Shown: positions 1 through 35,143 of the stretch, one piece after another
Layout: each line of letters starts with the position of its first letter
Numbering within the stretch: position 1 is the stretch's first letter
Source of the DNA: Bacteroidales bacterium
Lineage (GTDB): Bacteria; Bacteroidota; Bacteroidia; Bacteroidales; UBA932
NCBI GenBank assembly: GCA_017450165.1
Contig: JAFSWO010000105.1
Coordinates: 13,131 to 77,130, forward strand
DNA length: 64,000 bases
Reading direction: 5' to 3'
Made by a program: the position numbers and the translations under genes
The notes under the pieces: model-generated
The model's input: the letters and a program-made list of their open reading frames with translations, nothing else
What the model was told of the DNA's origin: nothing
Database searches by the model: none

Positions 1-1
1 G

Positions 2-1075
2 GCCGACACATTCGTGACGAACTAATTGTCGGAAAACGGTTGCCCGAATTGGACAGAAGGCATAAGCCGCTGTTGCCTTTCTGTATTCTATTCCACCGAC
101 AATGGCATTCTGGGTACAATTGGGAACGACGCAGACCGCCGCCCCGTCCATTATCGGCCGACCAAGTGCATCTTCGATAAACTTTTTACAGGAAACGAAA
201 TCAAAGGTCACCGCACCATTGTTCAAATCCGCCTGGCAGTAGTGAAACCTGGAATTGATTCTGTCTGTACCCAGACTAATACCGCGGACGGGGGACCAGT
301 TATAGATGATATAGACATTGAAGTACTTATATAATTTATCCATCGGATCAATGTCAAAATGCGCTTGGGCGGCTATTCGTAACCAATAGGCCGCTGTACC
401 GTCTATACTGTTTTCGTCCTTGTCAAACCCGTCGCCTATAATAATCAAGTCGTATCCTTTCCCCTCTTCCGCCTTGTGCACTACCTCCACCTGTCCATCC
501 GAGTAATACTCGCCTTTCCCATCGCGGTCGCTGTCAACGAAGATCCGGAAAGACGGATTATTCGAAGGATAGACACGAAGAGCTGTCGAAAGGGGCTCTA
601 TACGGGCTTCAGGTACGCGTAGGGTTGTCGTCTCAAAAGTGTTTCCAGAAAGATACGCCGTGAAGTTATCTGTAGCGATCTGCCGGAAGGTCTGCGGCAA
701 AGGCCCTGAAAGATAATTGTCGTCCAGCCGTAGTAGTTCCAGCTTAGGAAAGCGGTCGAAGATATCGGGAAGCGTTCCTTTAAGGCCATTCCCCCTAAGT
801 TCAATCTTCCTGACGACTCCGCCTTCATCTGCGGTGATTCCGAACCAGTCGTTGAGAGGGGCATCCGTGCACCATCCGTCATTAGATACCCATCCCGAGC
901 CCCGTGTTGCTTCATACAGATTCATCAGGGCAGACCGAACTTCTTCTTCGGTATATTCCTTCACTTCCGGGCCGCTCGGTTCCGATGGTTCATTTTCCGG
1001 CTGGCAGGAAAACAACGGCAGGAGCGCCGCAAGAAGAAAAAGGATCTTCAGGAAAGGTGTCTTAGACAGAGGCAT
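2..1075 (-). CDS. Lipoprotein with an LRR-like N-terminal segment and an M64/IgA-peptidase-like region; its 3' end is cut by the window edge
   Basis: It is absent from the ORF track because it has no stop in the window. My reverse-complement translation from the ATG at 1075 reads MPLSKTPFLKILFLLAALLPLFSCQPEN (lipobox LFSC) and stays open to position 2. It contains GNGLKGTLPDIF..LELLRLDDNYLSGPLPQTF (LRR), then YDLIIIGDGFDKDE...YFNVYIIY...VRHECVG, which resembles M64-family layout. The metal motif is cut off or atypical. Confidence 0.7.
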   Translation of the reverse strand, partial: MPLSKTPFLKILFLLAALLPLFSCQPENEPSEPSGPEVKEYTEEEVRSALMNLYEATRGSGWVSNDGWCTDAPLNDWFGITADEGGVVRKIELRGNGLKGTLPDIFDRFPKLELLRLDDNYLSGPLPQTFRQIATDNFTAYLSGNTFETTTLRVPEARIEPLSTALRVYPSNNPSFRIFVDSDRDGKGEYYSDGQVEVVHKAEEGKGYDLIIIGDGFDKDENSIDGTAAYWLRIAAQAHFDIDPMDKLYKYFNVYIIYNWSPVRGISLGTDRINSRFHYCQADLNNGAVTFDFVSCKKFIEDALGRPIMDGAAVCVVPNCTQNAIVGGIEYRKATAAYAFCPIRATVFRQLVRHECVG

Positions 1076-1079
1076 CTGA

Positions 1080-2051
1080 TTACTCTTTTATGGAACGTTT
1101 AAACTTGGAAAGGTCCACATCGATGGTGGTCACCTCACCGGCAGAACGCTCATAACGATATTCATCCAGCGTCCGGGTATAGACGGCAGCATCCGTCTCA
1201 ACTTTGATGGTCCTGATATAAGAGAAGGCTCTTCCCCGCGGGCCACCGTTACCATAGGTGCACATATACACCTTTACTCCGTCTGTTTTCTTGCGGTCGG
1301 CAAGGGTACACTGCTCTTGGAGAAGGACGGTTTCAGAGGTTCTGCCGTTAATATAATTCCAGATACGTCCTGTTTCTGCGTTGATGAACGGCTGTGCATT
1401 GATGTGGTTGCCCACGCGCTCAATGCCATTTTCATCGGCCTCTTCTTGAGTGTAACGAGTGATTGTTACAGAGCGTAAGATCTCTTCCTTGTCCATCTTG
1501 CGCGCTTTGCCATAAATATTGAAAAGCACATAAGCACAAGCGTGCCTCAACTGGACATTATCGGCAAGATAAGAGCCGTCGTCCTGCTTGACGAGCTTCA
1601 GCGGTGCGTACATAAAGAAGCGATCCAAAATTCCTGATTTTTTTTGAATCTGCCTAGGTACCAATTTGATGGTATTAGTTGGAACATTTGCACGAACGCA
1701 GGTATGACCCTCGGCATTGTAAACAAATAAAGGCTCCGGCACCCCTTTCCAGGGAGTACCCCATCCTACGTATCGAACGTCATCAATCGTAAATCTGCCC
1801 AGATCAATCTCGCCGGAAAAGACACCAGGTTCCACTTCTACAAGAGAGACCTGCTTGCCGTCAGCGGCAGACATGCTAAGTTCATTTCCAATGAGAACCT
1901 TCAAATTATTGGAAGGTGCTTCAGTAAAATCTCCGTCCAGATCGGGGAATGTTGCTCGAACGGTAAGTTTGATGACATTTTCCTGAGCGAGGAGCGAGGT
2001 AGAAAGAAGTAACGCTCCGACCAACATGAGAATCTTTTTCATAATAATCAA
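1080..2051 (-). CDS. Secreted protein with a pilin-fold (fimbrillin/Mfa-like) paralogous domain
   Basis: Signal peptide MKKILMLVGALLLSTSLLAQ. It shares GVFSGEIDLGRFTIDDVR and LFNIYGKARKMDKEEILRSVT with the products of 5398..7362 and 7369..8412. It lies 4 nt from its downstream neighbour. Confidence 0.8.
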   Translation of the reverse strand: MIIMKKILMLVGALLLSTSLLAQENVIKLTVRATFPDLDGDFTEAPSNNLKVLIGNELSMSAADGKQVSLVEVEPGVFSGEIDLGRFTIDDVRYVGWGTPWKGVPEPLFVYNAEGHTCVRANVPTNTIKLVPRQIQKKSGILDRFFMYAPLKLVKQDDGSYLADNVQLRHACAYVLFNIYGKARKMDKEEILRSVTITRYTQEEADENGIERVGNHINAQPFINAETGRIWNYINGRTSETVLLQEQCTLADRKKTDGVKVYMCTYGNGGPRGRAFSYIRTIKVETDAAVYTRTLDEYRYERSAGEVTTIDVDLSKFKRSIKE

Positions 2052-2054
2052 TGG

Positions 2055-5000
2055 TTATTTTCGATTGTCGAGAGGGTATAGATATCCACATCCGAAACTC
2101 GCCAAGGGCTCTTTCGGAGAGAAGAAAAGATCAAGGATAGCATCGTAATAATTAATCCTGTTTGCTGTATTGGTAAATAAGCAGAAGGTTTTGCTGCTTT
2201 CAGGAAGAACAACCACTGTCGAACGCCAAGCTCCGTTCCGGCCAGTATGGACCAGCATTGTGCCGAATTCTGTGTTTTCCTCCACTATCCAGCCGAGTCC
2301 CCGCCAAAGGCTCATTCTCTCGCGGCGGTATTCGGACGCCGGGATGTGGGTATTATGCCCATAAGCGAGCGCAAGCGTTTCGGGCTTTAAATCCGCACCA
2401 GCAGCAGCCCATCTCAGGAATTTAGTGAAATCAGATGCTGTCGTAAGCAAGGTAAGACCGGTGTTGAGTTCGCCCTTCACGCTCCAAGCGGGACGAGGTG
2501 AAGATTTTGTGTTTCCCGTATAAGCAGGAACGGCCGTATTGGCAAACTGTTTCTTCCAGAGATACGACGTGTTTTTCATGCCCAGCGGTCCAAAAATCGC
2601 TTTTCGGCAAAGCTCCTCGGCCGTTTTTCCTGTCAGGTATTCCACGGTCCATTGCAACACTTTGTAATTATTGCGGCTTTCCGCATAAATAGTTCCGGGG
2701 ATATAGATATTTCGGATCTTCAACTCATCATCTCCCGCCGAGATTGCAGAAGTATGGGCAAGGCATTGTCTAACGGTAACCTCTTTTGCCTTGCTGCGAG
2801 AAGATTCCGCAAAACGGTTGACAAGGCCCGGATAATATTTGCAGAGCGGAGTATCCAAATCCAATTTCCCGTCCTCCACCATCTTCAAGACTACATAAAC
2901 AAAGGGCAGAGCGCCTGCCTCACAAGCCTGGAAAACGCACTCGTTTCCATAGGGTTGAATCCAGGCTTTACGCGTCGCGTTCGTCCGGAACCACTCATCG
3001 TTTGAAAGGGTCATATTCACCTCTCCGAGATTGTCGCTGTATGCAACCTGAAGGGCGGCAAGGTCAGCACGATCCTTCCCCATGATTGAGAGAAGACTGT
3101 TTCGGATTTGATCGATATCGCGCTCGAAGGGACGAACGGTCCATCCTGCAGCCACGGGATTAGCGGGAATGACTTCATCAAATGAGGAACACTTGCCCGC
3201 TTCGAAAAGAGTTCCCGAAACAAGCACCTCATGAGAGAGAACCTCAATTTGGTTGCCATTGGCGAGATAATAATCAAGATGTATCTTTCCGGTTTTAAGC
3301 ATAACAGGGTAGACGGTCATTGGGAAGGAGAAGGTTTTTCGACCAAGAGGTCCGGCACCCGCCACCTCAAGTGTAACCGCATTTCCTTGAGCCGTATCGT
3401 CAACCAGCATTATATCATTCCGTTTTCTGTGATAACGAGCTGTACCGACAATGGGTTGCGATGTGCTAAGAACAATACGTTTGAGTTCCCATTTCGCATA
3501 TTTGCTGCCACTTTCAGCAGAAATCGCAACCTGAGCGGACGCGAGCCTTGGATCAGGAGGACAAACAGCTCCGGGGCGAACAATCTGGGTGGGACTGATG
3601 CGTACAGAATCAATAATCAAATCCCTTTCAGTATCCTCAGCCACCCGGTCATCGTCATCCGTTACATATTTCCATCCGGGAACCGGCATGCCGGCGACCC
3701 AACCCAATGCCCGGACCGGTTCTGTATTGTGAAGGAATACATTGATGGCGGGATTATAGTTGTCATACGGATGGCGACAATTGACGAAAAGCGTCATGGT
3801 AGCATTCATATCCAGGAAGGTCATGGCAATCGAGCGAAAATCTCCATTGTGTCCAGTGTGGTATATAATCGTACCCAGTTCTTCATTTTCCTCCACTACG
3901 ACTACCTGCGCATGATGAACGGTCCCTTTTTCCATGGTAATGTCCTTTGCGATGTGTGCGCCATCGTCAATCATCCGGTTGAAGGAGTCCTCCGTCAGGT
4001 CTGCTCCAATGAGATACCAGCTCCAGAAACGGTTGAATTCTGTGGAGTTGGTGCGAAAATGGAAGGAACAATTGTTGTTGAATCCCTCCTTTTCCCACCA
4101 GAAATCAGGATCTGCCAGACCTTGATCGTTATGCTCCCACTTCTCGGGTCTAATCATCGGGGTCGTTCCCGTCCATCCGTAAACGGCCAGGGAGTCGTAT
4201 TGAGGCTGCCAGGTATAACGGCTGTTGGGCATGTTGCGCTTAGAATAGATGTATTCTTCCGCCACCTCATCAAGCGGTTTCCCCATCAAGTGCTCAATGG
4301 TCCATTGGAGTGCCACCGTATTGGAATTGCGATAGTTATAATGGAATCCTGGATAATAATCCAGCGGAGTGTTCCGATAGCCCGCTCCACAACCTGATGT
4401 GTGGGTAAGAGCCATCCGCCCCGTAATGAGTTTTACACGCTCTCGATACTCCGGACGAAATCGGTCAAGAAGCTTTGGATAATACTTGTAAAGCGGCGTA
4501 TCAAGATCGACTACTCCGTCGTTAGCCAGTTTTGTATATAAGTAGCCACACGGGACTTTACTGATGGAGCAAGCCTGGTAAATGGAAAGCATATCAATCG
4601 GACGCGTGAGGAATTTCTTCCGAACTGGTTTAGATTCATAAAAATCCTGATTGAATGCAACAAAACCTACACTATCGATGTGCGAAGTGAAGGTTACCTG
4701 ACAAGAAGCAATATCACACTTCTTGACCATTTCCATAAAAATCTTCTTGTATGAATCCGTCGGATCCTCTCTCTCCCGAATGGACCATCCGCTTTCTGCT
4801 GAATCAATCTTTTCAAGAAATACAGAGACATCCCCTGCAGTAAACACCGTTTCCGTTATAGGAATACTATGTGTTAACACTACGCTTTTCGAACGATCCG
4901 GACTCCGGAGAATATAATCAATAACTAGAGCCCCCGAATGGAGACGGGCCGGATATACCGACATATAATATCTGGCCGGGACAGACGACAGTATCGCTTC

Positions 5001-5393
5001 GCCCATTACGTCCAGTTTGATTCTTGATTTTCGGGCCGTATTGTCTATCAGTTTGATATCATGGTATGTTTCATCAAAGAGAACATCTCCGGCAATATTG
5101 CGGGAAGCCGCCATTTCGATACGAAGCAAAGTCCATCCGCTAAAAGGGCTTCCTTCTGAAACCGAAATCTCAAAAGCAGCCAAAGAGAGCCTTTTATCGA
5201 ATTCAACCGTGGTCTTCGGAGGCATCGCGACTACGGGATAATGACCTTTTTTCACCAAGTGCGCAGTCTGGTTGGGCCCCGCTTGAATCTGGAAAGGGGA
5301 CACTCTTCCTTTCTCTGTTTCAAACGCAGTTGCCGTTTGGACGATTGTCAGAATCAGAGCCAGCGTGAATAGAAGATTTCTTGACATATTCAT
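2055..5393 (-). CDS. Secreted tandem beta-lactamase-fold (serine hydrolase / family VIII esterase / DD-peptidase-like) protein, built as 2 x [beta-sandwich + beta-lactamase-fold]
   Basis: Internal duplication is visible in the translation. Module 1 has ACSISKVPCGYLY...DLDTPLYKYYP and IIYHTGHNGDFRS. Module 2 has ACEAGALPFVYVV...DLDTPLCKYYP and MLVHTGRNGAWRS. The SxxK motif (SISK, nt 4557..4568) is present only in module 1. Confidence 0.85.
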   Translation of the reverse strand: MNMSRNLLFTLALILTIVQTATAFETEKGRVSPFQIQAGPNQTAHLVKKGHYPVVAMPPKTTVEFDKRLSLAAFEISVSEGSPFSGWTLLRIEMAASRNIAGDVLFDETYHDIKLIDNTARKSRIKLDVMGEAILSSVPARYYMSVYPARLHSGALVIDYILRSPDRSKSVVLTHSIPITETVFTAGDVSVFLEKIDSAESGWSIREREDPTDSYKKIFMEMVKKCDIASCQVTFTSHIDSVGFVAFNQDFYESKPVRKKFLTRPIDMLSIYQACSISKVPCGYLYTKLANDGVVDLDTPLYKYYPKLLDRFRPEYRERVKLITGRMALTHTSGCGAGYRNTPLDYYPGFHYNYRNSNTVALQWTIEHLMGKPLDEVAEEYIYSKRNMPNSRYTWQPQYDSLAVYGWTGTTPMIRPEKWEHNDQGLADPDFWWEKEGFNNNCSFHFRTNSTEFNRFWSWYLIGADLTEDSFNRMIDDGAHIAKDITMEKGTVHHAQVVVVEENEELGTIIYHTGHNGDFRSIAMTFLDMNATMTLFVNCRHPYDNYNPAINVFLHNTEPVRALGWVAGMPVPGWKYVTDDDDRVAEDTERDLIIDSVRISPTQIVRPGAVCPPDPRLASAQVAISAESGSKYAKWELKRIVLSTSQPIVGTARYHRKRNDIMLVDDTAQGNAVTLEVAGAGPLGRKTFSFPMTVYPVMLKTGKIHLDYYLANGNQIEVLSHEVLVSGTLFEAGKCSSFDEVIPANPVAAGWTVRPFERDIDQIRNSLLSIMGKDRADLAALQVAYSDNLGEVNMTLSNDEWFRTNATRKAWIQPYGNECVFQACEAGALPFVYVVLKMVEDGKLDLDTPLCKYYPGLVNRFAESSRSKAKEVTVRQCLAHTSAISAGDDELKIRNIYIPGTIYAESRNNYKVLQWTVEYLTGKTAEELCRKAIFGPLGMKNTSYLWKKQFANTAVPAYTGNTKSSPRPAWSVKGELNTGLTLLTTASDFTKFLRWAAAGADLKPETLALAYGHNTHIPASEYRRERMSLWRGLGWIVEENTEFGTMLVHTGRNGAWRSTVVVLPESSKTFCLFTNTANRINYYDAILDLFFSPKEPLASFGCGYLYPLDNRK

Positions 5394-5397
5394 TGTT

Positions 5398-7362
5398 TTA
5401 ATTAAAGGTAACAGGAGTAAGTTGATATCCTAATTGATCCTGAACCACAGTTTTCCAAATACCCGTATTGTAAAGTGTTTCCGATCCTGCCGGAACACGA
5501 AGTTTCTTTTGAGAAGCAGGTATGTTATATCCCGTGGATCGGGATGCATTATTACCATTCACATCATAATAACGGAAGGTTGTTGCCAGGATGCTAGGTG
5601 CTACCGTTTGTGATCGGCATTCAATCTCTCGCAGGTAACGACAGCAGCCGAAAACGTTTCCTGCAAGGCCGGAAGCCCCGTCTTCAATAATGACTTTGTC
5701 GACATTGGCATTCGTCCAGAAGGTCAATGATGTTGACGAAGAGTGAGGTCCAAGCACTACGGTCAGGTTACCTGTATGCTCATATGGCGTAACGTAACTG
5801 CTTGTCTGCCATGAAAACGCTATTCCGCAGGAAGATGCGTCCAAATAGAGATATCGAAGCGCATACAACCTATAAAAAGAGTAGTTCTCACAGATAACTT
5901 GTTCTCCTACAAATACCGAGTCAATGCTCTTATCCGGCTCCAGCGATTCGTTGAGAAACGCATGAGCGGCGACTGTCGTTCCCGGAGCGGCATTTCTCAA
6001 ATCCACTTTCGTCAACGGTACATTCCCGAAAGCATTCGAACCAATTGAGCGTATTTTTGAAAAATCCACATTAAGAAGGTACGAACAGTTGTAAAACGCT
6101 TTGTTCCCGAGAACGGCTCCTTCGGGAAGAGGAACCTCACTAAGCCCAGTACAATTCATAAAACAGCCTTCGTCCAGGGTCGTTACATTCTGCGGCAAGA
6201 GAATGGATGCAAGCATTTTACATTGTGTTTCTCCGTCACTGCCGAATACGCTGGGGAAAATGGCGGAAACGTACTTGGCCTGTGAAAGGTCAAGATTAAC
6301 TGGAAGCGCCTGTCCATCGATTGCTGTACGAATCGTTTGCAAATCGCTTTCCTGGAGATTTCCACGCACCGAGAGAGAGCGGAAAGTGACGGGCAAACTG
6401 GTCGTCCAGGTGAGGCCTCCGTCGACGGAGAACTCGGCATGAATGGCCTTATTGCCGAAACCAGCCAAATCAATGGCAGCCTGTATCACTTCTCCCGCCC
6501 GGGGCGAAATAGTTTCATTGAATCGGGCGCTGTAGTCCGCCTTGTCAGTGGATACACAAATACTATCTATCGTTACGTTCTCACTGGCATTTCCATATGG
6601 AAGCAATGCAACAAAGGCTTTGACGCCGTTGCTTCGATCTTTTCCCGTCACCTGAGATGCCTCTTCCAGCAGTATCTTGACCGTAGAGGATGGCGTACCC
6701 GCTACGGACCAGGCGCCATTGCGGCCGATCCGGATCGTTCCGGAAAGTCCTTTGTTTCCAGCGGCATGAAGCGTGAGGCTCTTCAGTTTCTCGCCATCCT
6801 CCATCTCGGCGGCTTTGCCATAAACATTGAAACGAATGATAGCCGCGGACGAGTTCAGGATCATGGAGTGCAGCGTGTACGTATTGTCCCCTGTAATAAA
6901 GCTATCCTCATTCACAAATGCATAAAAAGGCACGAAATCCCCATTGAAGACGCCATCACTTTGCTGAACCTGGGATTCAGCGATAGAAAGCACAATCTCG
7001 TCCTTTGGCCCGTCATACCATGCGCTGTTTTGGGCGGGGACGACAGCTGCCCGTAGATCAGCTACAGTAAAAGGCGAGAGATCGGCAGAACCGGTGAAAA
7101 TTCCGGAGGAAGAACTGGGAAGCGATATCTGTTTTCCTTCAGCTGATGATGAAGATCCGCTGTTTGCCAACAGAACGGAGAGGACTTCATCTCCCTCCCA
7201 TATTGCCTGACCTTCACTCATACCGATGCGAGTTTGCGTATCCTGAAAACCCGGTTCCGCACCGATGAGGAATGTCACGCGCGAATGGGTTTCTGGCTTC
7301 TCCAAAGAGCACGAGAAGAAAAACGGGGCGCAGATTGCAAGAATATACAGAATTTTTTTCAT
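5398..7362 (-). CDS. Lipoprotein with a pilin-fold N-terminal domain and a BspA-type leucine-rich repeat C-terminal domain
   Basis: Lipobox FFFSCS. The N-terminal half carries the paralog motifs GIFTGSADLSPFTVADLR and RFNVYGKAAEMEDGEKLKSLT. The C-terminal half has CFMNCTGLSEVPLPEG..NKAFYNCSYLLNVDFSKIRSIGSNAFGN repeats. Confidence 0.85.
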   Translation of the reverse strand: MKKILYILAICAPFFFSCSLEKPETHSRVTFLIGAEPGFQDTQTRIGMSEGQAIWEGDEVLSVLLANSGSSSSAEGKQISLPSSSSGIFTGSADLSPFTVADLRAAVVPAQNSAWYDGPKDEIVLSIAESQVQQSDGVFNGDFVPFYAFVNEDSFITGDNTYTLHSMILNSSAAIIRFNVYGKAAEMEDGEKLKSLTLHAAGNKGLSGTIRIGRNGAWSVAGTPSSTVKILLEEASQVTGKDRSNGVKAFVALLPYGNASENVTIDSICVSTDKADYSARFNETISPRAGEVIQAAIDLAGFGNKAIHAEFSVDGGLTWTTSLPVTFRSLSVRGNLQESDLQTIRTAIDGQALPVNLDLSQAKYVSAIFPSVFGSDGETQCKMLASILLPQNVTTLDEGCFMNCTGLSEVPLPEGAVLGNKAFYNCSYLLNVDFSKIRSIGSNAFGNVPLTKVDLRNAAPGTTVAAHAFLNESLEPDKSIDSVFVGEQVICENYSFYRLYALRYLYLDASSCGIAFSWQTSSYVTPYEHTGNLTVVLGPHSSSTSLTFWTNANVDKVIIEDGASGLAGNVFGCCRYLREIECRSQTVAPSILATTFRYYDVNGNNASRSTGYNIPASQKKLRVPAGSETLYNTGIWKTVVQDQLGYQLTPVTFN

Positions 7363-7368
7363 GGCTAG

Positions 7369-8412
7369 TTATTCAACGGGTACCCAAACAGATTCATTGA
7401 TCCAGCTGAGTTGTCCCAGCGTATTTGCGTTGGGGAAAGCGGCCGTCAGGTCTATCCCTATTTTCGTTACCGTTCCCACCGTCACGGGAAGATTTGCATA
7501 GACCGGCATCCGATAGGTCTTGCGATCGGTCTTAATCTCGAAATAAGAATCGCCGCCGATCTTGTATCCCTTAGCAGCAACGGCCATATAGATTTTGAGG
7601 CCGTTTGCTTGGCTTCTGCCGGCCAGAACAGCCGGCTCCTCGAGATTGACCGTAATCAGGCCCGAGTTTGTCTGGGCGTAGAGGAAAGAGTCGCTCTCAA
7701 TCAGATAGTAGACGTAGTCCCCGATGGTTCTGTTGGAATTGCTACTTCCCTCCCAAGTACCTTGTTTATCCACGTAAAAGGTAATAGAACGCAACTTTTC
7801 ATCTGCAGTCATGCCGGCTCCCGTTCCGAAGAGATTGAACCGCAACAGGCCGCAAGCCCATCGAAAGGTCTTTCCGTCCACGAAATAAGTACCCTCGTCT
7901 TCTCCGACATCTCCCGCTCCAAAAGCACATATCAACGATATGTTGTTTCCGTTAAGGACTCCTTCCTGCCATTGCGTCTGGATTCTATCACCGTTGGATT
8001 CCAACGAACCGCCCACGGAAAGACGGACTCGATGGTCATTGGTGCTCTTGTAATAATGACAGCTTGAATTGTACGGAAAAACGGCACCGCGAATATCGTT
8101 GACCGTAAACTTTCCAAAATCAACCGTCCCCTCAAAAATACCATTCCCGTACGAATTCAGCGGTACGGTCGCATGCGTATCCGAAGTAATCGTACTAGAG
8201 CTTTGATCGTTTCCAAGCAACAGACCTATGGTCTCGAACGACCCCCAGGTGAGTTGATCATCAGAACCGAAGGTGACACGAGTATCCGCCAGAGAACCGG
8301 TAAGGCGGAAGTTGTAGATATGATGAAGGTCTGTTTCAAGACCGGGGTCCCTGCCGCACCCCGAAGCAACGACAAGCAACAGAAATGAAACAATTGGAAC
8401 AAATTTTCTCAT
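7369..8412 (-). CDS. Lipoprotein with a pilin-fold paralogous domain
   Basis: Lipobox VASGCG. Motifs GIFEGTVDFGKFTVNDIR and RFNLFGTGAGMTADEKLRSIT are present. It overlaps the upstream gene by 4 nt. Confidence 0.8.
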   Translation of the reverse strand: MRKFVPIVSFLLLVVASGCGRDPGLETDLHHIYNFRLTGSLADTRVTFGSDDQLTWGSFETIGLLLGNDQSSSTITSDTHATVPLNSYGNGIFEGTVDFGKFTVNDIRGAVFPYNSSCHYYKSTNDHRVRLSVGGSLESNGDRIQTQWQEGVLNGNNISLICAFGAGDVGEDEGTYFVDGKTFRWACGLLRFNLFGTGAGMTADEKLRSITFYVDKQGTWEGSSNSNRTIGDYVYYLIESDSFLYAQTNSGLITVNLEEPAVLAGRSQANGLKIYMAVAAKGYKIGGDSYFEIKTDRKTYRMPVYANLPVTVGTVTKIGIDLTAAFPNANTLGQLSWINESVWVPVE

Positions 8413-10160
8413 AGCGATTGTGTATAGACTTTTTTCAGGAGCCTCACATACGCTCCGTAATAGATGGTAATATCATAAATGGGCTCGTAAGTATTGGAAA
8501 GGAGGCGCAAAGATGTCATCGTATGAGAGCCAAATGCATAGTTGTAATTCATGGAGAGATAGTACAACACCGCGCCGTAAGCACCTGTGGCTGCCCTACC
8601 CCGGGATCCAATCGCGGAAAAACCCGTTACGTTCCCTTTGTTTACATGCATTTTTTCTATCAGCTCCGCTGTATAATCCTCATTGCTCATTTCGCGAATA
8701 TCCTTTTGTATCACATAGCCCAACAATTGCGAAAAGTCATCTTTGGATGGAATACTCCACCCCTCGGGAGAAAGCCTGTCTTCCTTGACAAAATCAGCCC
8801 GAGCCGTGTCCGTAAAAGTAATACTCTGGCCCACTATGGCGGAATAGTTGTAGAGGCAACCATACTGAGCCCGGATTGCCTGGGCTTCCGGAACATTTGC
8901 GTCCTCATAGGTATTTGCAGAACCTGTTGCGGAAACGAGGCACATCGGCTGCAGCTGACCGGTTGACCGTGCCGCCCATTCTTCCGCGTTAAATCCTGTC
9001 GGAATAGGGGTCCCGTCTTTCTGACGGGAAGATGCGAAATTGCTCTTGATCCAATATTGCATGCCGATCTTGACGATTGCGTACTCAAAGTACTCTGACG
9101 TGTTACCTGCGGAATCGGCAGCGCCGCTACGATGATCCTTAAGTGTATATGGTTCGCAAATGGCAATTGTCGCGCCCTCATATCCGGAACCGGACAGATC
9201 GACCGCCTCCGGATAGGTAGAACCAGCCGAAAGGAAAACCGTCGTCACACCCGAGGCGGTCCCAAGCTCTACAAGCGCAATCATGTCGGACCCTTTTGTC
9301 TCATGATTTGAAGCGATATTCCAGGTGACAGCGCCTCCGTTTTCGCAGATAAATCCCTTGGTAAAATCCGGAGCCCCATTGAAATAGGGATAAATAACCG
9401 TGTATGAACCATCTACGATTGGATTGCTACCCTCCGGGCGCGTTTTGTAAAGATACTCCCGGCAAACAAGGCCTACCGGGTTTCCGGTATCTGGATCTTT
9501 CGCCTCATAAACAGGCCATTGGCCCAGATTGAGAGAATTAAGAGATATCAAATAGGATTTGCCAGCGGAAGAAAGTTGTGTAATGGAAACCGAGGTCTGT
9601 ACCTGCACAGAGGAAATACTCACTTCCGTGGTTCGTTGGGCGCCGGTATTCTCCGTCACTGTGAGGTAAAGCCAGCCCTCTTCAAATCGAAGAGCTGTTA
9701 ACCAATCGGCGGAACAGGATAGCGAAACCTCCTCCGGAAGAAGATTGGAAGAGACGGGAACCCGATATTCGCCGGCAGCGGCGTCTATTGGATTGTTTGT
9801 GGCATAAAAATCAAAATGGCGGCGATAATCTTGTTCAACACCCAACGTAATGAAAGAGGTTCCGGACCAGATCTTTACGTGAGAGTTTCGCGGTGCTGCA
9901 TCTTCGTTAGCACACACAGTAACTACAAAGGTTTGGAATCCTTCACAATAACAGGAAATCCATGTATCAGAAGTAGGAGTCGTCGGTTCTCCACCCTTTC
10001 CGCTGGTGGTAACAGTAAAGGTTTGCGCATCACCTGAAAGATGAACGGATGCACCGTCATAGGAAGCCACAGAAACGGCCTCAATATGAATACTATCGGG
10101 TTCCTCGGAACAAGAAACGGCAACCGCCAAAGCCACAAACCAAGTCAGATATTTCTTCAT
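8409..10160 (-). CDS. Lipoprotein with two BACON-like domains and a FISUMP (Fibrobacter succinogenes major paralogous) lectin-fold domain
   Basis: The start is trimmed to MKKYLTWFVALAVAVSCS. The BACON-like signature is TWISCYCEG..VTVCANEDAAPRNSHVKIW. The FISUMP signature is MQYWIKSNF...YGCLYNYSA...PEGWSIPSKDDFSQLL. Confidence 0.8.
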   Translation of the reverse strand: MKKYLTWFVALAVAVSCSEEPDSIHIEAVSVASYDGASVHLSGDAQTFTVTTSGKGGEPTTPTSDTWISCYCEGFQTFVVTVCANEDAAPRNSHVKIWSGTSFITLGVEQDYRRHFDFYATNNPIDAAAGEYRVPVSSNLLPEEVSLSCSADWLTALRFEEGWLYLTVTENTGAQRTTEVSISSVQVQTSVSITQLSSAGKSYLISLNSLNLGQWPVYEAKDPDTGNPVGLVCREYLYKTRPEGSNPIVDGSYTVIYPYFNGAPDFTKGFICENGGAVTWNIASNHETKGSDMIALVELGTASGVTTVFLSAGSTYPEAVDLSGSGYEGATIAICEPYTLKDHRSGAADSAGNTSEYFEYAIVKIGMQYWIKSNFASSRQKDGTPIPTGFNAEEWAARSTGQLQPMCLVSATGSANTYEDANVPEAQAIRAQYGCLYNYSAIVGQSITFTDTARADFVKEDRLSPEGWSIPSKDDFSQLLGYVIQKDIREMSNEDYTAELIEKMHVNKGNVTGFSAIGSRGRAATGAYGAVLYYLSMNYNYAFGSHTMTSLRLLSNTYEPIYDITIYYGAYVRLLKKVYTQSL

Positions 10161-10165
10161 GTCTG

Positions 10166-10609
10166 TTACCTCCATATGATTTCATCGTTGCCCCAAACGG
10201 TTATCGGTAGAATAGAGGGTTTGGGTTCGTAAGCCGGGATATACAGAAAATCCTGTACGATATTGATGCGAGAAACGTTTTTCCCAATAACCACATCTAC
10301 CCAGGATGATCGCTCAGACTTACTATTATTAGGCTTAACAATAACATAAAGATCATCAACAACACTTATGAACGAACACCACGACACATCAAGATTACAC
10401 CTCATCTGCCAAGCGTTCGCATTAACCTTGTGATTTACATGTACAATGACTGTGTCTCTTTCTGCCGGGAAGAAGATGGTACCGTCATTCCAATAAGCGT
10501 TCGTGCATTCCAGCGAAAAATCGTTATCTGGCTGGATTAGATTCTCTCCCTCATCACAGGAGCAAAAGAGGGCCAAGCCGGCTATTATTGTGATTAATAG
10601 TTTTTTCAT
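10166..10609 (-). CDS. Small BACON-like lipoprotein
   Basis: The start is trimmed to the ATG at 10609 (MKKLLITIIAGLALFCSC lipobox). It contains VSWCSFISVVDDLYVIVKPNNSKSERSSWVDVVIG. It begins 13 nt after the susD-like stop. Confidence 0.7.
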   Translation of the reverse strand: MKKLLITIIAGLALFCSCDEGENLIQPDNDFSLECTNAYWNDGTIFFPAERDTVIVHVNHKVNANAWQMRCNLDVSWCSFISVVDDLYVIVKPNNSKSERSSWVDVVIGKNVSRINIVQDFLYIPAYEPKPSILPITVWGNDEIIWR

Positions 10610-10622
10610 CTCTTTAAGCTCT

Positions 10623-12194
10623 TTAATAAACATCGTCATTAACCTCAACTCGATCGCTATAGGCAGCATACCCGGGATTCTGCTGAGACCGAATCGCTTT
10701 ATTGGCTGTCATCTCATCCAATGGAATAGGATACACAGCCCGAATCCCCAAACCGGTCGGATTGCCGAATGTTATAGTAGCAGCACTCGTGATACATCCA
10801 ACAATCGGTCGTCCCGTAATGTTCCTCCCATTGCGGAACCAGTCAAAATAATTCTGTCCCTCCAACATAAATTCCCTACGGCGCTCGTCCAAAATATTAT
10901 CCAAAGAGGATACGGAAGGTGCGTTATCGCGGCGGCGGACAGACGTTACTCTGGATAGCATCTCTTTTGCCGCGTCATAATTGGCTCTTTTGTAATAGGC
11001 TTCTGCCAAATTGAAGTAGATTTCCGGAAGGCGGACGACAGGCACGTTGTGAACACTGTGATATGGGTCGCCTACATACTTACGCAACGTCAACTCATCA
11101 CTGAACGGAATGCCTAGTGTACAGATGAGATAGCGCCGCACATCGGAATCATACGCACATAGGCACTCAACCGCTGATGACGCTGTGCCGGTGGTCAAAC
11201 CCAGCTTGGCATAGCCGACATCTTTACTCACAGTACCGTCAAGGGGAGAACCTGGAATATTGTAAGTCTGTTTGCGAACCCAGTAATTGATGGAGTTTCC
11301 TCCAAGGTTGTCCGTCTCTGAATATTTGATCTCCCAAATTCTTTCGCTGTTGTACGGCTTATAATACTGTGATGAATAACCCTCGTAGGAAATCATCGTA
11401 TAATTTCCCTCATAAAGATTAAGCCACTTCTTGCCGAGGTCGACCACGCTCTTATAATCTTCCATATAGAGAGCAACCCGAATACGCAACGCGAGAGCTG
11501 CGGCCGGCCCAATGTGCCCCCGTTCTGTTTCCGTATCCTCAAGAAGCTCGAACGCCTTATCCATGTCTGCGGCCACCATCATCCAGCATTCGTCCGCAGA
11601 AGAACGCGTGATAACGTGATCTTTGACATCGAAAGACATAGCCATCGTATTGATGATTGGGACTCCGAGTGCTAGATTTTCCGAATAAGAGCTACCCCAA
11701 GTGCAGCTGTATTTTGGCGGATAGGAGAAACAGCGCAACAGATCAAAATAGGCGAGAGCCCTAAGCGCATACGCCTGACCCTTAATCTTTCGGAGTTCCG
11801 ACACGTCGCCTGTAGCGTTATTGATAGATTCAAGTAGAATAGTGCTATTTCTGATAACATTATAACACCTGAGCCAGAGGTTGCGCGGATTTCCATTGAT
11901 ATTGGCCGCCGTAGTGTATGCATTTTCTGTTTTAAACGAAAAGCCGCCACCAACATCTCGCATATAGAAATCAGGACTCTTGACAGCATCATAAAGGTAA
12001 AGCAAGGCCCCGTAGTACTGGTAGCTCGAGACATCGTCATAGATGCCCGTCAGAAGAAGATCCAACCCTTTCTGGGTGGTTTTAACCGTTTCCCCTTCAA
12101 GACCAGTGTAGGAGGGCTTATCCAAAAGCGATTCGCAGCTATGGCAAAATAGGAGAATCGCAGAACAGAATAGTATCGCAAAGAATCGTTTCAT
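10623..12194 (-). CDS. SusD/RagB family nutrient-binding outer membrane lipoprotein
   Basis: Lipobox LFCHSCE and an all-helical TPR-like composition. It begins 10 nt downstream of the SusC-like gene, and its 523-aa length is typical of the family. Confidence 0.9.
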   Translation of the reverse strand: MKRFFAILFCSAILLFCHSCESLLDKPSYTGLEGETVKTTQKGLDLLLTGIYDDVSSYQYYGALLYLYDAVKSPDFYMRDVGGGFSFKTENAYTTAANINGNPRNLWLRCYNVIRNSTILLESINNATGDVSELRKIKGQAYALRALAYFDLLRCFSYPPKYSCTWGSSYSENLALGVPIINTMAMSFDVKDHVITRSSADECWMMVAADMDKAFELLEDTETERGHIGPAAALALRIRVALYMEDYKSVVDLGKKWLNLYEGNYTMISYEGYSSQYYKPYNSERIWEIKYSETDNLGGNSINYWVRKQTYNIPGSPLDGTVSKDVGYAKLGLTTGTASSAVECLCAYDSDVRRYLICTLGIPFSDELTLRKYVGDPYHSVHNVPVVRLPEIYFNLAEAYYKRANYDAAKEMLSRVTSVRRRDNAPSVSSLDNILDERRREFMLEGQNYFDWFRNGRNITGRPIVGCITSAATITFGNPTGLGIRAVYPIPLDEMTANKAIRSQQNPGYAAYSDRVEVNDDVY

Positions 12195-12204
12195 CTCAGT
12201 GTCA

Positions 12205-15200
12205 TTAAAATCTTATGGAAAAGCCGAGTGTGAAGGTTGCAGCAGTTGGATAGCGATCCTGTTGCCTGTAACCCGATGTCGTCATTTCGGGGTCATAGTT
12301 TTTGAGTGCACATAGAATAAGGGCGTTCTCAGCCTGGAGGTATGCCGAGGCGGAAACGGCTTTCATTGCTTTGGCAAATCGGTTCGGTACAGCCCAGGTA
12401 AGACGGGCTGAATTCAGTTTGAGGTAATCTCCCTTGTAGAGGTAACGGGTTGTATTGGTGGCCCGGCTCTGACCATTAATACGCAACGGGTTAGCTGCAT
12501 CTTTGTGATCCGGTGTCCAACGGTCCAGCATTGAACGATCCATCACGACACTATAGGAGCCATCATTGTTGTGAAGAGAGGCGCCCATACTGTCGAATAA
12601 ATAGTGTCCCAATCCATAGGTGAACGAAAGATCCAGCGTTAACCTGGAATATCTCAGGGCGGATTTGATGCTTCCGTACACTTTCGGGACGCCTTGTTTA
12701 TTGTATTTGTAAGGCCCAGCCGTCGTTGACTTGTATTTATTACCATTCTCGTCCGTATTCCAGTACAAGCAGTATCCTGTATCGGGGTCGATTCCGGCGA
12801 ACTCAATCAGATACCACGTATGGACGTTAAGTCCATTGGCAATAATCTGACGCTGCGCATCATCTAGATAAGAATCCTCCAAGCCGTAGTAAACGCTGCT
12901 GAGCGTGCTCATATTGAAGTTCAAATCCCATTTCACTTTGCTGGACTGGATTGCTGTTCCTTTGACGGTAAGTTCAATACCTCTATTATTGATACCGGCT
13001 TCTGTGTTCCTGAGCATCGTCCGGTAACCGGATGTCTCAGAGACCAACTCATACCGAAGCAGGTTGTTGGATTTTCGCTGAAAGTACTCCAGCCCGACGG
13101 TAAGCCGGTTCCCGAAAAACGCCGCATCGACACCTGCATTCCAGACGGTATTGCCCTCCCAGGTAAGATCAGGACGGTGGCGATAGGTACTGATTACGCC
13201 GACCTCCCCGTCGTAACGGGTCGTGTCAAAAATCTCTCGCCAATACGCGCGTGCGGCGGGCTGGTTTCCATTAATGCCGTAACTACCTTTAATCTTGAGC
13301 AGGTTGATATCTCTGAGAAAACGACGCATGAAGGGCTCCTTTGAAAGGTCCCAGCCGCCGGAAAGAGACCAGAAATTACCAGCTCGGTATCCAGGGGCAA
13401 ACCGCGAAGAGTAATCCCGTCGGAAGGATGCTCCCATAATATAACGATTCTTGAGGGTGTACCCCCCCGTTGAGATTAAACTCAGCAATGCGGAGCCTGT
13501 TCTTGTTCCGGTATAATCGGAAATGCTTGACGCGCTGCTCAGATACGGGAAGCCGTCATCTGCAAAGTCTTGTGAAGCAAGATAGAGCAGTCTGTCATCG
13601 ATATCCTCAATTTCTACGCCTATGGTTCCAGTCAATTGGTGCTTTTTCCCAAATTGTTTGTCAATTTGAAGGAGTGAAGCTCCTGTCACTTTGGTGCTCT
13701 CGTTATACCGTTCCTGCAAGCGGCCATTCAACATATAACCACCGCCGAAGGTACTTGTATAATAGGTCATGCGATGCGTCTGATTCCATCGAACCGCTGC
13801 TCGGTTTTCCCATTTTAGCCAGGGCGCTATCTTCCAAATTACATCGCCGTTGATCTGGAGCGTAATCGCCGGACGACTATTGCTGAAAAGCTCTGCCGTA
13901 GCTAACGGATTATTATTGGAATTAAGAAGATTGCCGGGAAAATGAAGATTATAACTACCATCCTCCAGATAGGCCGGAACCACGGGAGGTATGCAATTAG
14001 CCGCATACATGGGCGACATATAAAGTGTTCCTCCGTAGAGAGGACCATCCTGAGTGGAGTGGGCAGCATAACTATTAATGCTCCAATTCACTTTCTTGCT
14101 CTTGGCGCTTTGATTAAGCTTCATTCGGAAAGCCAGACGCTCGAGTGAAGAGTTCTTGATGGTACCCTGTTGGTCCAGGTATTCCAAAGAGGCATAATAA
14201 CCGATATTGGCAAAACCGCCGCTCACCTGCAGTGAATTCTTCGTATAGACGGCTGTTCGAGTGATGGCATCATACCAATCAACATTCGGCAGTTTATCAT
14301 AATTGTCTCCGAAATAATCATAATAGGTATAGCTACCATTCGGAGCGGGCATTACGTAATAGGTGTTGAACGACTCGCGGGCGAGTTTCTGCCAGGCATA
14401 GTAGTTCTTTCCGTCGAAGTTATGGCCCGTCTTGTCTGCATAGAGTGCATTCAATTCTTCAACCAACATTCTCCGCTGGGTGAGAGTGGATGATGTCGTA
14501 CCGCGGATAACATTGTAAATCATACGATTCATTTCTCCTTCCACCCAAAGCTCTGCATACTCGCGCGCATCGACCAGATCTGGTTGATAAGCCATTATGG
14601 AGATACCATTGGTTGTCCTGAAGTCAATCCGCATCTTCTCTCCCGTCTTTCCCTGTTTCGTCGTGATGACTATCACGCCATTGGCGCCACGTGAGCCGTA
14701 TAGTGCAGCGGAAGATGCATCTTTAAGAACAGTAAAGCTCTCAATATCCGAAGAGTTCAGCGCAGCCAGAGGGTTATCGGTGATATTCTCGCTACCAGAA
14801 AGATTGTCTTGTTCCCAGACAACTCCATCCACAACAAACAGCGGTTGGTTAGAACCTTCCAACGAACCAAATCCTCTCAGCAAAATGTCCCCCGGATCGC
14901 CCGGCTGTCCCGCCGTCACCGCGAGGGCGCCTACAACGTTGTCGCGAATGGATTCCTCAAATACTCCGATAGCCCTGTTTTCGAAAGTGGCGTTGGCAAC
15001 AGTAACTGCACTACCTGTATAGGATTCTTTTGCAATTGTTCCGTAGCCGGTAACCACGGCACTCTCCAACGTACGAACTTCCTCCTTGAGGACGATGTCG
15101 ACCAGAGTTTTTCCCTGTACTTGTACCCGCTGAGTCACCATGCCGGCGAGTATTACATCGAATGCAGAGTCCTCAGCAATTTTCAGCAGAAATTCTCCCT

Positions 15201-15390
15201 TCTCGTCCACATATGTGTAATTGCTGGTTGAACCAACTTCAACAACTACGGCTCCCGGCAGGGCGAGACCTGCCTTATCCATAACGTGACCTCTCACTGA
15301 AATGACCTTGGGTTGAGAATTCTGGCCAAAGGCATGGAAAGACATCAGCGCCAATAGACAAACCGTCACAATCCTTTTGAATGATACCAT
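12205..15390 (-). CDS. SusC/RagA family TonB-dependent outer membrane transporter
   Basis: It has a signal peptide, a carboxypeptidase-regulatory-like N-domain (VRGHVMDKAGLALPGAVV) and a plug motif (VVTGYGTIAKESYTGS). It is 1061 aa and ends in an aromatic residue (..FSIRF). There is no STN domain. Confidence 0.95.
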   Translation of the reverse strand: MVSFKRIVTVCLLALMSFHAFGQNSQPKVISVRGHVMDKAGLALPGAVVVEVGSTSNYTYVDEKGEFLLKIAEDSAFDVILAGMVTQRVQVQGKTLVDIVLKEEVRTLESAVVTGYGTIAKESYTGSAVTVANATFENRAIGVFEESIRDNVVGALAVTAGQPGDPGDILLRGFGSLEGSNQPLFVVDGVVWEQDNLSGSENITDNPLAALNSSDIESFTVLKDASSAALYGSRGANGVIVITTKQGKTGEKMRIDFRTTNGISIMAYQPDLVDAREYAELWVEGEMNRMIYNVIRGTTSSTLTQRRMLVEELNALYADKTGHNFDGKNYYAWQKLARESFNTYYVMPAPNGSYTYYDYFGDNYDKLPNVDWYDAITRTAVYTKNSLQVSGGFANIGYYASLEYLDQQGTIKNSSLERLAFRMKLNQSAKSKKVNWSINSYAAHSTQDGPLYGGTLYMSPMYAANCIPPVVPAYLEDGSYNLHFPGNLLNSNNNPLATAELFSNSRPAITLQINGDVIWKIAPWLKWENRAAVRWNQTHRMTYYTSTFGGGYMLNGRLQERYNESTKVTGASLLQIDKQFGKKHQLTGTIGVEIEDIDDRLLYLASQDFADDGFPYLSSASSISDYTGTRTGSALLSLISTGGYTLKNRYIMGASFRRDYSSRFAPGYRAGNFWSLSGGWDLSKEPFMRRFLRDINLLKIKGSYGINGNQPAARAYWREIFDTTRYDGEVGVISTYRHRPDLTWEGNTVWNAGVDAAFFGNRLTVGLEYFQRKSNNLLRYELVSETSGYRTMLRNTEAGINNRGIELTVKGTAIQSSKVKWDLNFNMSTLSSVYYGLEDSYLDDAQRQIIANGLNVHTWYLIEFAGIDPDTGYCLYWNTDENGNKYKSTTAGPYKYNKQGVPKVYGSIKSALRYSRLTLDLSFTYGLGHYLFDSMGASLHNNDGSYSVVMDRSMLDRWTPDHKDAANPLRINGQSRATNTTRYLYKGDYLKLNSARLTWAVPNRFAKAMKAVSASAYLQAENALILCALKNYDPEMTTSGYRQQDRYPTAATFTLGFSIRF

Positions 15391-15567
15391 CGATAAGGTT
15401 TGAATAAAACGTAACTTCGGCTTACGCCATTATTTTGTTGGTAAAGATACATTTTTGTTTCCAATAAAAAAAGCTGTCTTAAAGAGGATTGACAAAATCT
15501 CCTTCTCTTTGACTGCAAGAAGGTTATCAATCTACGTAACCTTGATATCTATCATTTCCGAAAGGAG

Positions 15568-16555: not shown

Positions 16556-16592
16556 AGTAGTTATGGTTATAAATATGGTTATTAAATAATGA

Positions 16593-17843
<1,251 letters not shown>

Positions 17844-27922: not shown

Positions 27923-27926
27923 GGCG

Positions 27927-31917: not shown

Positions 31918-31926
31918 TATTCTCAA

Positions 31927-32901: not shown

Positions 32902-32909
32902 ACGATTCT

Positions 32910-33947: not shown

Positions 33948-33963
33948 AACACTATCCCCTTCC

Positions 33964-33997: not shown

Positions 33998-34035
33998 TTG
34001 GGAGATGATTTATATAAACAATCGATTCTCAGGCA

Positions 34036-35121: not shown

Positions 35122-35143
35122 TTTGTTTGAGAATATTATGCTA

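Follow-up and report, generated by a model that had tools for sequence, protein, structure and literature searches.

The stretch analysed here, a 64,000-nt window of contig JAFSWO010000105.1 from a Bacteroidales bacterium (GCA_017450165.1), carries on its minus strand, from position 15390 down to position 1, an operon led by a susC/susD pair. In our view this operon probably, though by no means certainly, serves the utilisation of a peptide- or amide-linked substrate and not of a polysaccharide, a function that we infer from the protein families it encodes. None of its 13 products matched a glycoside hydrolase (GH), polysaccharide lyase (PL) or carbohydrate esterase (CE) family in Pfam or NCBIfam, and four families of peptide or amide hydrolases are represented, namely S12, M64, PahZ1-like and aminopeptidase C-like. 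The lack of a recognisable glycoside hydrolase had already been pointed out in a prediction made earlier from the letters of the window (hereafter the original prediction), and it holds for the whole operon, including the part that lies beyond the window.

The gene run is uninterrupted from susC to the window edge and comprises nine genes within the window, eight complete and one cut by the edge; the NCBI protein accessions for the locus are MBQ7640697 to MBQ7640705. A metagenome contig from ENA, L001, which shows 2 mismatches to the window over the 12,042 nt compared, extends the operon leftwards. It supplies the rest of the edge gene, which encodes a leucine-rich repeat (LRR) protein with an M64 domain, and adds four genes, a 46-aa open reading frame (ORF) and those for proteins of 649, 321 and 360 aa, giving 13 genes in about 21 kb; convergent genes come after the 360-aa gene. 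Reckoned from the ATG starts of the independent L001 gene calls, the intergenic gaps from susC to the edge gene are 10, 13, 5, -4, 6, 4, 12 and 4 nt, which bears out the original description of an all-minus run and of its gap range (-4 to +13 nt). The count of at least ten genes given at that time is too high for the window and correct once L001 is read. Of the products encoded between positions 1080 and 8412, all are pilin-fold, BspA-type LRR or S12 proteins and none belongs to a GH or PL family, and the genes left of position 1 include those for M64, PahZ1-like and C1 peptidases or amidases, not carbohydrate-active enzymes (CAZymes) with a hybrid two-component system (HTCS) or an extracytoplasmic function (ECF) sigma factor. 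The samples, like the only two species representatives found to be related, are metagenome-assembled genomes (MAGs) from the rumen or ruminant gut.

Among the hydrolases, the 1112-aa protein (2055-5393) is a tandem duplication with halves that are 30% identical (E 2e-82). Each half consists of an N-terminal domain of about 200 aa and a beta-lactamase-fold domain, and the Pfam family Beta-lactamase matches in two stretches (E 2.7e-49), so that the tandem beta-lactamase-fold hydrolase of the original prediction can now be described as one active-type and one dead module. The set SxxK, YxN and HxG is that of the S12 R61 DD-peptidase. In module 1 the corresponding SISK, YRN and HTG are invariant in six homologs, and this module is predicted to be catalytically competent. 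In module 2 the replacement of the catalytic residues is kept in six family members and in a separate gene of the related locus L008 (p534), and because Glu takes the nucleophile position in all homologs, module 2 is, as judged from its residues, a conserved pseudo-enzyme. L008 encodes the S12 modules as separate genes, two of the active type and one dead. The dead module has a C-terminal tail, EPL(A/S)xFGCGxLYPLDNR(K/R), which is kept even in p534.

In the PDB, the tandem protein matched S12 D-peptidases and the R61 DD-peptidase weakly; a match to carboxylesterase 4ivi and a weak NCBIfam match to methyl acetate hydrolase were found as well. The N-terminal domain of module 1 aligns to residues 140-357 of the homolog P0011 (E 3e-16), inside the PF13149 (Mfa_like_1) match of the latter. 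A direct hhalign comparison of the pilin-fold family with the S12-tandem family was negative, so the link of this domain to fimbrillins is transitive, via P0011 only. We found 11 relatives of the tandem in 5.8 billion clusters, and a scan of GTDB species representatives with the S12-tandem alignment gave only two carriers, both rumen MAGs, in which the genes stand alone. A role of the S12 genes as antibiotic-resistance beta-lactamases was considered and rejected in view of the tandem with a dead module, the fimbrillin-like N-terminal domains and the operon context.

The 321-aa serine hydrolase, of alpha/beta-hydrolase type, is closely related to the poly(aspartic acid) hydrolase PahZ1 of Pedobacter KP-2 and Sphingomonas KT-1, for which a catalytic Ser-Asp-His triad and a substrate-positioning Arg have been described (PMC13017698). 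In the alignment with 9o7u, the Ser of GHSAGG, the Asp of GERD, the His of GIGH and the Arg of GRHR of our protein fall at these positions. The bonds that PahZ1 cuts are beta-Asp amides, with a preference for L-Asp/D-Asp at the cleaved position (PMC4456602). It was defined on a synthetic polymer, whereas the gene for its 321-aa homolog belongs to the core of a family of SusCD loci. An assignment of this gene as a CE1-type carbohydrate esterase was also considered and is less likely, the match to PahZ1 standing at about 1e-45 against weak matches to PF00756 (Esterase) and to a PHA depolymerase model of NCBIfam.

The same enzymes may be read as acting on an ester-linked polymer, such as, in the rumen, plant polyesters or feruloylated or acetylated xylan, or else the D-alanyl esters of teichoic acids; the S12 proteins would then be esterases of the family VIII type, and the alpha/beta hydrolases would serve as depolymerases. 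The matches of the S12 protein to 4ivi and methyl acetate hydrolase and those of the 321-aa protein to Esterase and PHA depolymerase would fit this, as would the fusion of the pilin-fold carrier domain, treated below, to GDPD and other phosphoesterases elsewhere. Family VIII esterases carry WGG, and module 1 has HTG instead, as in the R61 DD-peptidase. Moreover, PahZ1, an amide hydrolase, is the best characterised protein related to the 321-aa enzyme, M64 and aminopeptidase C both belong to the peptidases, and a dipeptide epimerase is linked to the system in relatives, so we regard an ester substrate as unlikely and retain peptide or amide bonds as the probable target.

The two remaining hydrolases are the LRR-M64 lipoprotein and the C1 peptidase. 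The M64-like domain had been proposed from the truncated edge gene; as a Pfam match it becomes visible only in the full-length 482-aa protein of L001, which reaches 50.1 bits with Peptidase_M64 (PF09471, E 3e-13) against a cut-off of 26. The LRRs at its N-terminus resemble those of plant receptor kinases, N-cap included. The zinc motif, HECVGH...LIDEY, has one residue inserted relative to the HEFGH of PDB 3p1v, and the resulting HExxGH is kept in four clade members, from loci including L006 and L008, as HECVGH, HESSGH, HETGGH and HEFGGH. In the C1 peptidase, the catalytic Cys (STCWCF) and His (DDHAM) are kept.

The gene content of related loci strengthens the case for a peptide-linked substrate. 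SusD has 58 homologs with identities of 39-94%, and a metagenome scan with the SusD alignment yielded 80 loci, of which the 33 with a SusD identity of at least about 41% were subjected to a census by local BLAST; many of these contigs are short. The BACON/FISUMP gene, which adjoins susD in 24 of the 33, is the hallmark partner of this SusD family. Orthologs of the 147-aa lipoprotein occur in 15, PahZ1-like genes in ten (often as two copies upstream of susC), S9 peptidases in seven, S12 genes in five, pilin-fold genes in four and the epimerase in three, with C1 and M64 in one locus each. Two diverged loci are fully syntenic with ours, L006 (S12 protein 61% identical), which adds an S9 peptidase, and L008/L009 (347-aa protein 57% identical), where L008 carries additional M64 genes and encodes its S12 proteins in three separate genes. 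L016 reads S9, LRR_5, SusCD, small BACON-like, BACON/FISUMP, pilin-fold, LRR_5 and S12. L013 and L014 combine SusCD, BACON/FISUMP, a PahZ1-like gene (L013), pilin-fold/LRR_5 and S9 with a divergent operon that encodes an enolase-superfamily dipeptide epimerase with a twin-arginine translocation (TAT) signal and three to four S12 proteins. This epimerase matches PDB 3iji (E 3.4e-140), which we take to be the dipeptide epimerase BT1313 of B. thetaiotaomicron, and the L-Ala-D/L-Glu epimerase 1jpd (1.2e-34). BT1313 has been placed in periplasmic processing of peptidoglycan peptides (Xu et al. 2015, PMC4600125). The minimal loci L015, L017 (Alistipes sp. GCA_036652595) and L018 are made up of PahZ1-like, SusC, SusD and BACON/FISUMP genes, with S9 in L018, and the PahZ1-like orthologs adjoin susC in L013, L015, L017 and L018; since their gene order is identical, L015 and L017 may not count as independent evidence. 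Both have as neighbours an aspartate ammonia-lyase/fumarase-type gene, DcuC and an M3 peptidase, which would fit the release of aspartate.

The original prediction had left the substrate as non-glycan or ester/peptide-linked, and the recurring PahZ1-like, S9, S12 and epimerase genes speak for the peptide side. Taken together, the R61-type motifs of module 1, the PahZ1-type core gene and the epimerase in relatives suggest D-residue or beta/iso-linked peptides, for example stem or bridge peptides of the cell wall, as the substrate; we put this forward tentatively, as one possible specification.

Several points weigh against a peptide substrate, and some of them would suit a glycan or glycoconjugate locus in which the substrate is a glycopeptide, peptidoglycan or another glycoconjugate, the genes for the glycosidases lie at other sites or represent families still to be discovered, and the role of the peptidases is confined to trimming off the peptide part. 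BACON domains mostly accompany glycan systems, and we know of no function for FISUMP; a literature search on FISUMP function gave nothing relevant. Both binding modules and the SusD lid would be at home in a glycoconjugate locus. L038 carries an HTCS and a GH97 gene between its BACON/FISUMP and S9 genes, L014 has a GH63/MGH1-like gene after S9, and HTCS genes are present in one SusD subgroup (L038, L039, L041). The transporter does not help the peptide case either, SusC being no nearer to RagA than to glycan SusCs in the PDB sequence search, and the nearest solved relatives of SusD being uncharacterised SusD proteins, with RagB not among the matches. The catalytic activity of the LRR-M64 protein is uncertain because of the HExxGH insertion, which departs from the canonical HExxH, and the C1 peptidase has Asp for the papain Asn (KDSHG) in both orthologs. 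The S12 and alpha/beta-hydrolase folds also include esterases, as the 4ivi match illustrates, and the epimerase and S9 genes, from which the D-peptide flavour comes, are absent from the locus of the window itself. Remote or unknown CAZymes have indeed been proposed for CAZyme-free susC/D loci (Lapebie et al. 2019, PMC6499787). However, in addition to the lack of any GH, PL or CE match in our operon, GH-type genes in the relatives are sporadic, occurring once each and in differing families (NAGLU once and BNR_2 twice among 54 unassigned neighbours), whereas the amidase families recur. A glycoconjugate locus is thus unlikely, and utilisation of a peptide- or amide-linked substrate remains the reading that we prefer.

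Two SusD groups of lower identity neighbour these loci. The sister group L043-L053 (36% identity) includes human-gut metagenome contigs, e.g., L048 (4567-14503), and L048-L050 encode an ECF sigma factor, FecR, SusC, SusD, a Metallophos protein and an alkaline phosphatase, a CAZyme-free set of phosphoester type. In a distant group (L060, L063 and L066; 27-28%), ECF, FecR, SusC and SusD are joined by a dipeptide epimerase, an S12 protein of 452 aa, Amidohydro_3, an Asp/Glu-racemase-like gene and Amidohydro_1; going by its families, this set looks dedicated to D-amino-acid peptides. By predicted gene content, both neighbouring groups are non-glycan.

A locus of this kind without glycoside hydrolases is not surprising by itself, because CAZyme-free loci are common and peptide import by RagAB is established. 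About 52% of 28,250 susC/D loci were found to be CAZyme-free, 11% of those with sulfatases or peptidases, and peptide-bound SusCD has been noted (PMC6499787); RagAB is the oligopeptide importer of Porphyromonas gingivalis (bioRxiv 10.1101/755678). Our locus belongs to the CAZyme-free class of PULDB, and L048 resembles the phosphodiesterase-containing loci of that class (PMC6499787), but the survey gave no composition, mechanism or substrate for this SusD family. With RagAB and the peptide-bound BT2263/BT2264 complex, the locus has in common the SusC/RagA barrel with its SusD/RagB lid, the lack of an STN domain and the link to proteolysis. RagAB, in contrast, consists of two genes and relies on gingipains encoded elsewhere, whereas here the transporter is accompanied by 11 more genes, which cover binding lipoproteins and four hydrolase families. 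Canonical polysaccharide utilisation loci (PULs) also begin with SusC/SusD and have surface binders, a putative surface endo-enzyme and periplasmic exo-enzymes, and the orthologous loci share with them control by an ECF sigma factor, an anti-sigma factor and STN. The locus in the window differs from them in having no GH, PL or CE gene, no regulator and no STN, and in that its enzymes, as assigned by family, would all be amidases or peptidases.

The transporter genes themselves are an adjacent pair with a 10-nt gap. SusC matches TIGR04056 (E 4e-181) and the SusC/RagA signature of NCBIfam. Among its best PDB matches, RagA (5.4e-72) and a dextran SusC (7.7e-75) score nearly alike, and searches of the PDB sequences with either protein of the pair did not separate peptide-type from glycan-type transporters. 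Pfam gives Plug and CarboxypepD_reg_2 for SusC and no STN, in agreement with what had been read from the window.

The lipoproteins encoded behind susD are putative binders. The 583-aa protein matches Fib_succ_major (2.8e-15) and BACON (2.7e-6) in Pfam as well as TIGR02145 in NCBIfam, which confirms the BACON and FISUMP domains of the original prediction. For the 147-aa lipoprotein, the BACON-like label of the original prediction could be upheld only weakly, since Pfam is silent and it is an hhalign comparison of its family profile (three orthologs) with the N-terminal domain of BACON/FISUMP that gives a match (probability 92%, E 5e-7).

The 347-aa protein gave no Pfam match and no meaningful PDB sequence match, and because of this empty search its fold is read solely from an AF2 model (pLDDT 69, pTM 0.70) and Foldseek. 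Nearly all Foldseek matches were type V pilins or adhesins of Bacteroidales, including 3ufi (E 2.8e-9, probability 1.0), 3t2l, 3sy6, 4eps, 4h40, Mfa4, FimA and Mfa2, with 5dhm, 6jzk and 5nfi also among the top matches. TM-scores were modest (0.3-0.5), so the modelled two-domain fimbrillin fold is supported at fold level only. In BLASTP, the 320-aa protein matches the 347-aa protein at 1.7e-19 and the 654-aa protein at 2e-22, and the N-terminal domain of the 654-aa protein matches the 347- and 320-aa proteins at E 1e-22. The LRR part of the 654-aa protein finds the PDB LRR proteins 4gt6 and 4fs7 at about 1e-17. Three pilin-fold paralogs, one of them fused to LRRs, had been recognised in the window; structure comparison and BLASTP agree with this, and a fourth, the N-terminus of the 649-aa protein, lies off-window. 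All four match one another at 1e-19 to 1e-28, and for none of these pilin-fold regions did Pfam or the PDB sequences give a match.

An exhaustive profile search for this pilin-fold family found 133 relatives in 1.84 billion representatives (proteins P0083-P0214); only four relatives of the 347-aa protein were present in 5.8 billion clusters, and a genome-contig scan with the pilin-fold alignment found none. Neither the paralogs of the window nor 65 family members matched PF13149 or similar fimbrillin families, so that, with a fold in common with the type V pilins (FimA/Mfa), they form a small separate family. In the 65 members, the domain is fused to LRR_5 in 40, Beta-lactamase in eight, Exo_endo_phos in five, GDPD in four, and once each to Metallophos, M64, an esterase and Laminin_G_3; some proteins of the family have four to five tandem copies of it. 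Unlike the type V pilins, the domain is thus mostly the N-terminal part of longer enzymes or LRR proteins, and because enzymes are among its fusion partners, it looks like a carrier for enzymes and LRR binders.

The presence of four pilin-fold paralogs, of which two carry BspA-type LRRs, and the many LRR_5 fusions in the family would also fit an apparatus for adhesion or capture, in which these lipoproteins attach to cells of the host or of bacteria and the hydrolases are incidental. Such a function is very unlikely in our judgement, as a TonB-dependent importer leads the operon, four secreted hydrolase genes are present, the fusions to enzymes point to a carrier, and the anchor and assembly genes of a pilus (DUF3575, DUF5119/Mfa2-like) are absent from the SusCD locus. 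The pure capture apparatus that had been offered as an alternative in the original prediction fits poorly, given four or five secreted hydrolases in the operon. A true type V pilus operon, which does have the anchor and assembly genes, is present in the same window on the minus strand (24515-40330, ~24.5-40.3 kb), with DUF3575 (653 aa), DUF5119 (339 aa), four Mfa_like_1 fimbrillins, a 354-aa gene and then proteins of 496, 839 and 1135 aa, the last four without a Pfam match; beside it, on the plus strand (40732-43151), lie a divergent Mfa_like_1 gene and an AraC-type regulator.

Signal sequences divide the products into two groups. A lipobox Cys is present in SusD, the 147-aa protein, BACON/FISUMP, the 347-, 654- and 649-aa proteins (three of the four pilin-fold paralogs) and LRR-M64, and in several it is followed by acidic residues. 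Acidic residues after the lipobox Cys are a surface-export signal in Bacteroidetes. The S12 tandem, the 320-aa pilin-fold protein, the PahZ1-like hydrolase and the C1 peptidase have a signal peptidase I (SPI)-type signal without Cys, as does the S9 peptidase of L006; the 320-aa protein, having this signal and no lipobox, is probably periplasmic, and this type of N-terminus is kept in its orthologs. The split is retained across three orthologous loci. The predicted layout, with the binding proteins and one endo-enzyme outside and exo-enzymes in the periplasm, would mirror the Sus paradigm.

In the peptide-utilisation system that we propose, BACON-like, BACON/FISUMP and pilin-fold proteins with or without BspA-type LRRs would capture the substrate at the surface, where the LRR-M64 lipoprotein is the candidate endo-acting enzyme. 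Fragments would be taken up TonB-dependently through SusD and SusC, as oligopeptides are through RagAB, and the hydrolases with SPI signals, presumably periplasmic (tandem S12, PahZ1-like and aminopeptidase-C-like), would complete the breakdown, module 1 of the S12 protein being active and module 2 probably only binding. The relatives may supply an S9 peptidase and an L-Ala-D/L-Glu epimerase in addition.

Table. Features of the susC/susD operon and of the region directly upstream of it. Positions refer to the window; features given as L001 lie off-window and were read from that contig.
Feature	Position	Strand	Basis or remark
~150-nt structured repeat with terminal inverted repeats TTTTCGCCAAAG...CTTTGGCGAAA	15568..15715	.	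upstream island boundary
Putative leader and probable promoter region	15391..15567	-	AT-rich spacer that adjoins the susC ATG on its upstream side
SusC/RagA-family TonB-dependent transporter, 1061 aa	12205..15390	-	signal peptide, CarboxypepD_reg, plug, barrel
SusD/RagB-family lid lipoprotein, 523 aa	10623..12194	-	SusD-like_3 3.2e-18, SusD_RagB 1.7e-15
Small BACON-like lipoprotein (weakly supported), 147 aa	10166..10609	-	acidic post-Cys segment C-DEGEN
BACON(-like x2) + FISUMP surface lipoprotein, 583 aa	8409..10160	-	C-SEEPD after lipobox
Pilin-fold (type V fimbrillin-like) lipoprotein, paralog 1, 347 aa	7369..8412	-	AF2 and Foldseek
Lipoprotein, 654 aa, N-terminal pilin-fold domain (paralog 2) + BspA-type LRR_5	5398..7362	-	LRR_5 6.4e-16
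S12 module 1: SPI signal peptide, half-fimbrillin-like N-domain, predicted catalytically competent domain	3600..5393	-	SISK, YRN, HTG
S12 module 2: same two-domain layout, EAGA and ESR at motif sites	2055..3599	-	catalytic Ser, Lys and Tyr replaced
Pilin-fold protein, paralog 3, 320 aa	1080..2042	-	SPI-type signal, no lipobox Cys
Edge gene, first 358 of 482 aa: LRR lipoprotein + start of M64-like domain	1..1075	-	LRR_1/LRR_8; full gene L001 10968-12416
649-aa protein, pilin-fold N-terminus (paralog 4) + BspA-type LRR_5	L001		BLASTP, Pfam
PahZ1-like serine hydrolase, 321 aa	L001		PDB 9o7u 1.4e-45, 6ve6 7.6e-40
Aminopeptidase-C-like cysteine peptidase (C1), 360 aa, secreted	L001		PDB 3pw3, 5wdk 1.4e-50

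The 13-gene block stands out from its surroundings in composition and boundaries. The G+C content at third codon positions (GC3) of the operon genes is 0.45-0.57, against 0.79-0.81 in the flanking pgk, Ntn-like, DUF456 and M24 genes. A structured repeat upstream of susC, with a perfect 19-nt inverted repeat and a nested 20-nt inverted repeat, has a predicted RNA fold of -84 kcal/mol (z -7.1), and a second direct copy, of which the 3' 57 nt are about 90% identical, is found past the last operon gene (~L001 16643-16790), so that the two copies bracket the low-GC block exactly. The core motif of the repeat is absent from the remaining window sequence and from 97 further loci, and no integrase, transposase or recombinase was seen inside the block. 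Based on a GC3 of about 0.5 in flanks of about 0.8 and on the bracketing repeats, we consider the block to be a horizontally acquired island. Between it and the core gene pgk lies a gene for a lipocalin-like lipoprotein (286 aa, 15740-16600, minus strand), which overlaps the stop of pgk by 8 nt and has an intermediate GC3 of 0.67. On the other side (L001 16796-20963), the insertion site sits in a peptidase-rich core neighbourhood that encodes a 410-aa protein without a Pfam match, whose signal peptide is followed by an N-terminal Cys and which is possibly Ntn or C69-like, an M24 Xaa-Pro aminopeptidase and a second Peptidase_C1_2 (PepC-like) protein.

No regulator adjoins susC; upstream of it are a 350-nt spacer, the lipocalin-like gene and pgk, and tblastn found no sigma factor or FecR homologs in the window or L001. 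L006, in contrast, has an STN-SusC, L008 an ECF sigma factor and an STN-SusC, and L013 a sigma factor, FecR and an STN-SusC. The statement of the original prediction that no regulator is visible is thus right for this copy and does not extend to the family, and given these orthologous loci, the missing STN and regulator are, by gene content, particular to the acquired copy, which has lost this signalling. The Bacteroidetes -7 promoter motif is TAnnTTTG, and the spacer upstream of susC contains TATCTTTA, which resembles it. Scans for sigma-70 promoters and terminators gave results at chance level in the window and L001, with a model that is not applicable to Bacteroidetes, and no Rfam family was found anywhere in the window.

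The 46-aa ORF of the operon (L001 12459-12599) has counterparts in L006 (15663-15791) and L016 (2445-2567). These ORFs of 40-46 aa have no signal peptide, follow the pattern M..K.NY..P...G.EW.D with an acidic tail after it, and lie directly upstream of the pilin-fold/LRR_5 gene in all three diverged loci.

In our literature search we did not find a description of the set of BACON/FISUMP, PahZ1-like, S9, S12 and epimerase genes, of an active-plus-dead S12 tandem with fimbrillin-like N-domains, of PahZ1-like enzymes as core SusCD partners or of the pilin-fold carrier family, and a search for a SusCD system for peptidoglycan peptides gave nothing relevant. In its broadest form, our proposal would make this SusD family an undescribed class of Bacteroidota loci that scavenges non-ribosomal-type peptides, with D-amino acids and beta- or iso-linked residues, from bacterial cell walls (necromass): the pilin-fold carrier would hold a surface metallopeptidase and the binding lipoproteins, SusCD would take up the fragments, and S12, PahZ1-like, S9 and C1 enzymes in the periplasm, with an epimerase, would finish the degradation; this extended version is somewhat more doubtful still than the cell-wall peptides suggested for the present locus. 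If it were true, PahZ1-type "polyaspartate hydrolases" would naturally cut beta-aspartyl links, e.g., those of D-iso-Asx cross-bridges.

The substrates of the CAZyme-free half of the Bacteroidota SusC/D loci are largely unknown (PMC6499787). The locus and its relatives give one CAZyme-free group a concrete, testable identity, with a recurring set of BACON/FISUMP, PahZ1-like, S9, S12 and dipeptide epimerase genes that is expanded here by M64, C1 and pilin-fold/LRR proteins. If peptide processing is indeed its function, the group would represent a route by which Bacteroidales of the gut and rumen obtain nitrogen from peptides or cell walls, a natural role would be assigned to PahZ1-type hydrolases, and the pilin-fold domain would be a modular carrier that displays enzymes and LRR binders beside a transporter.

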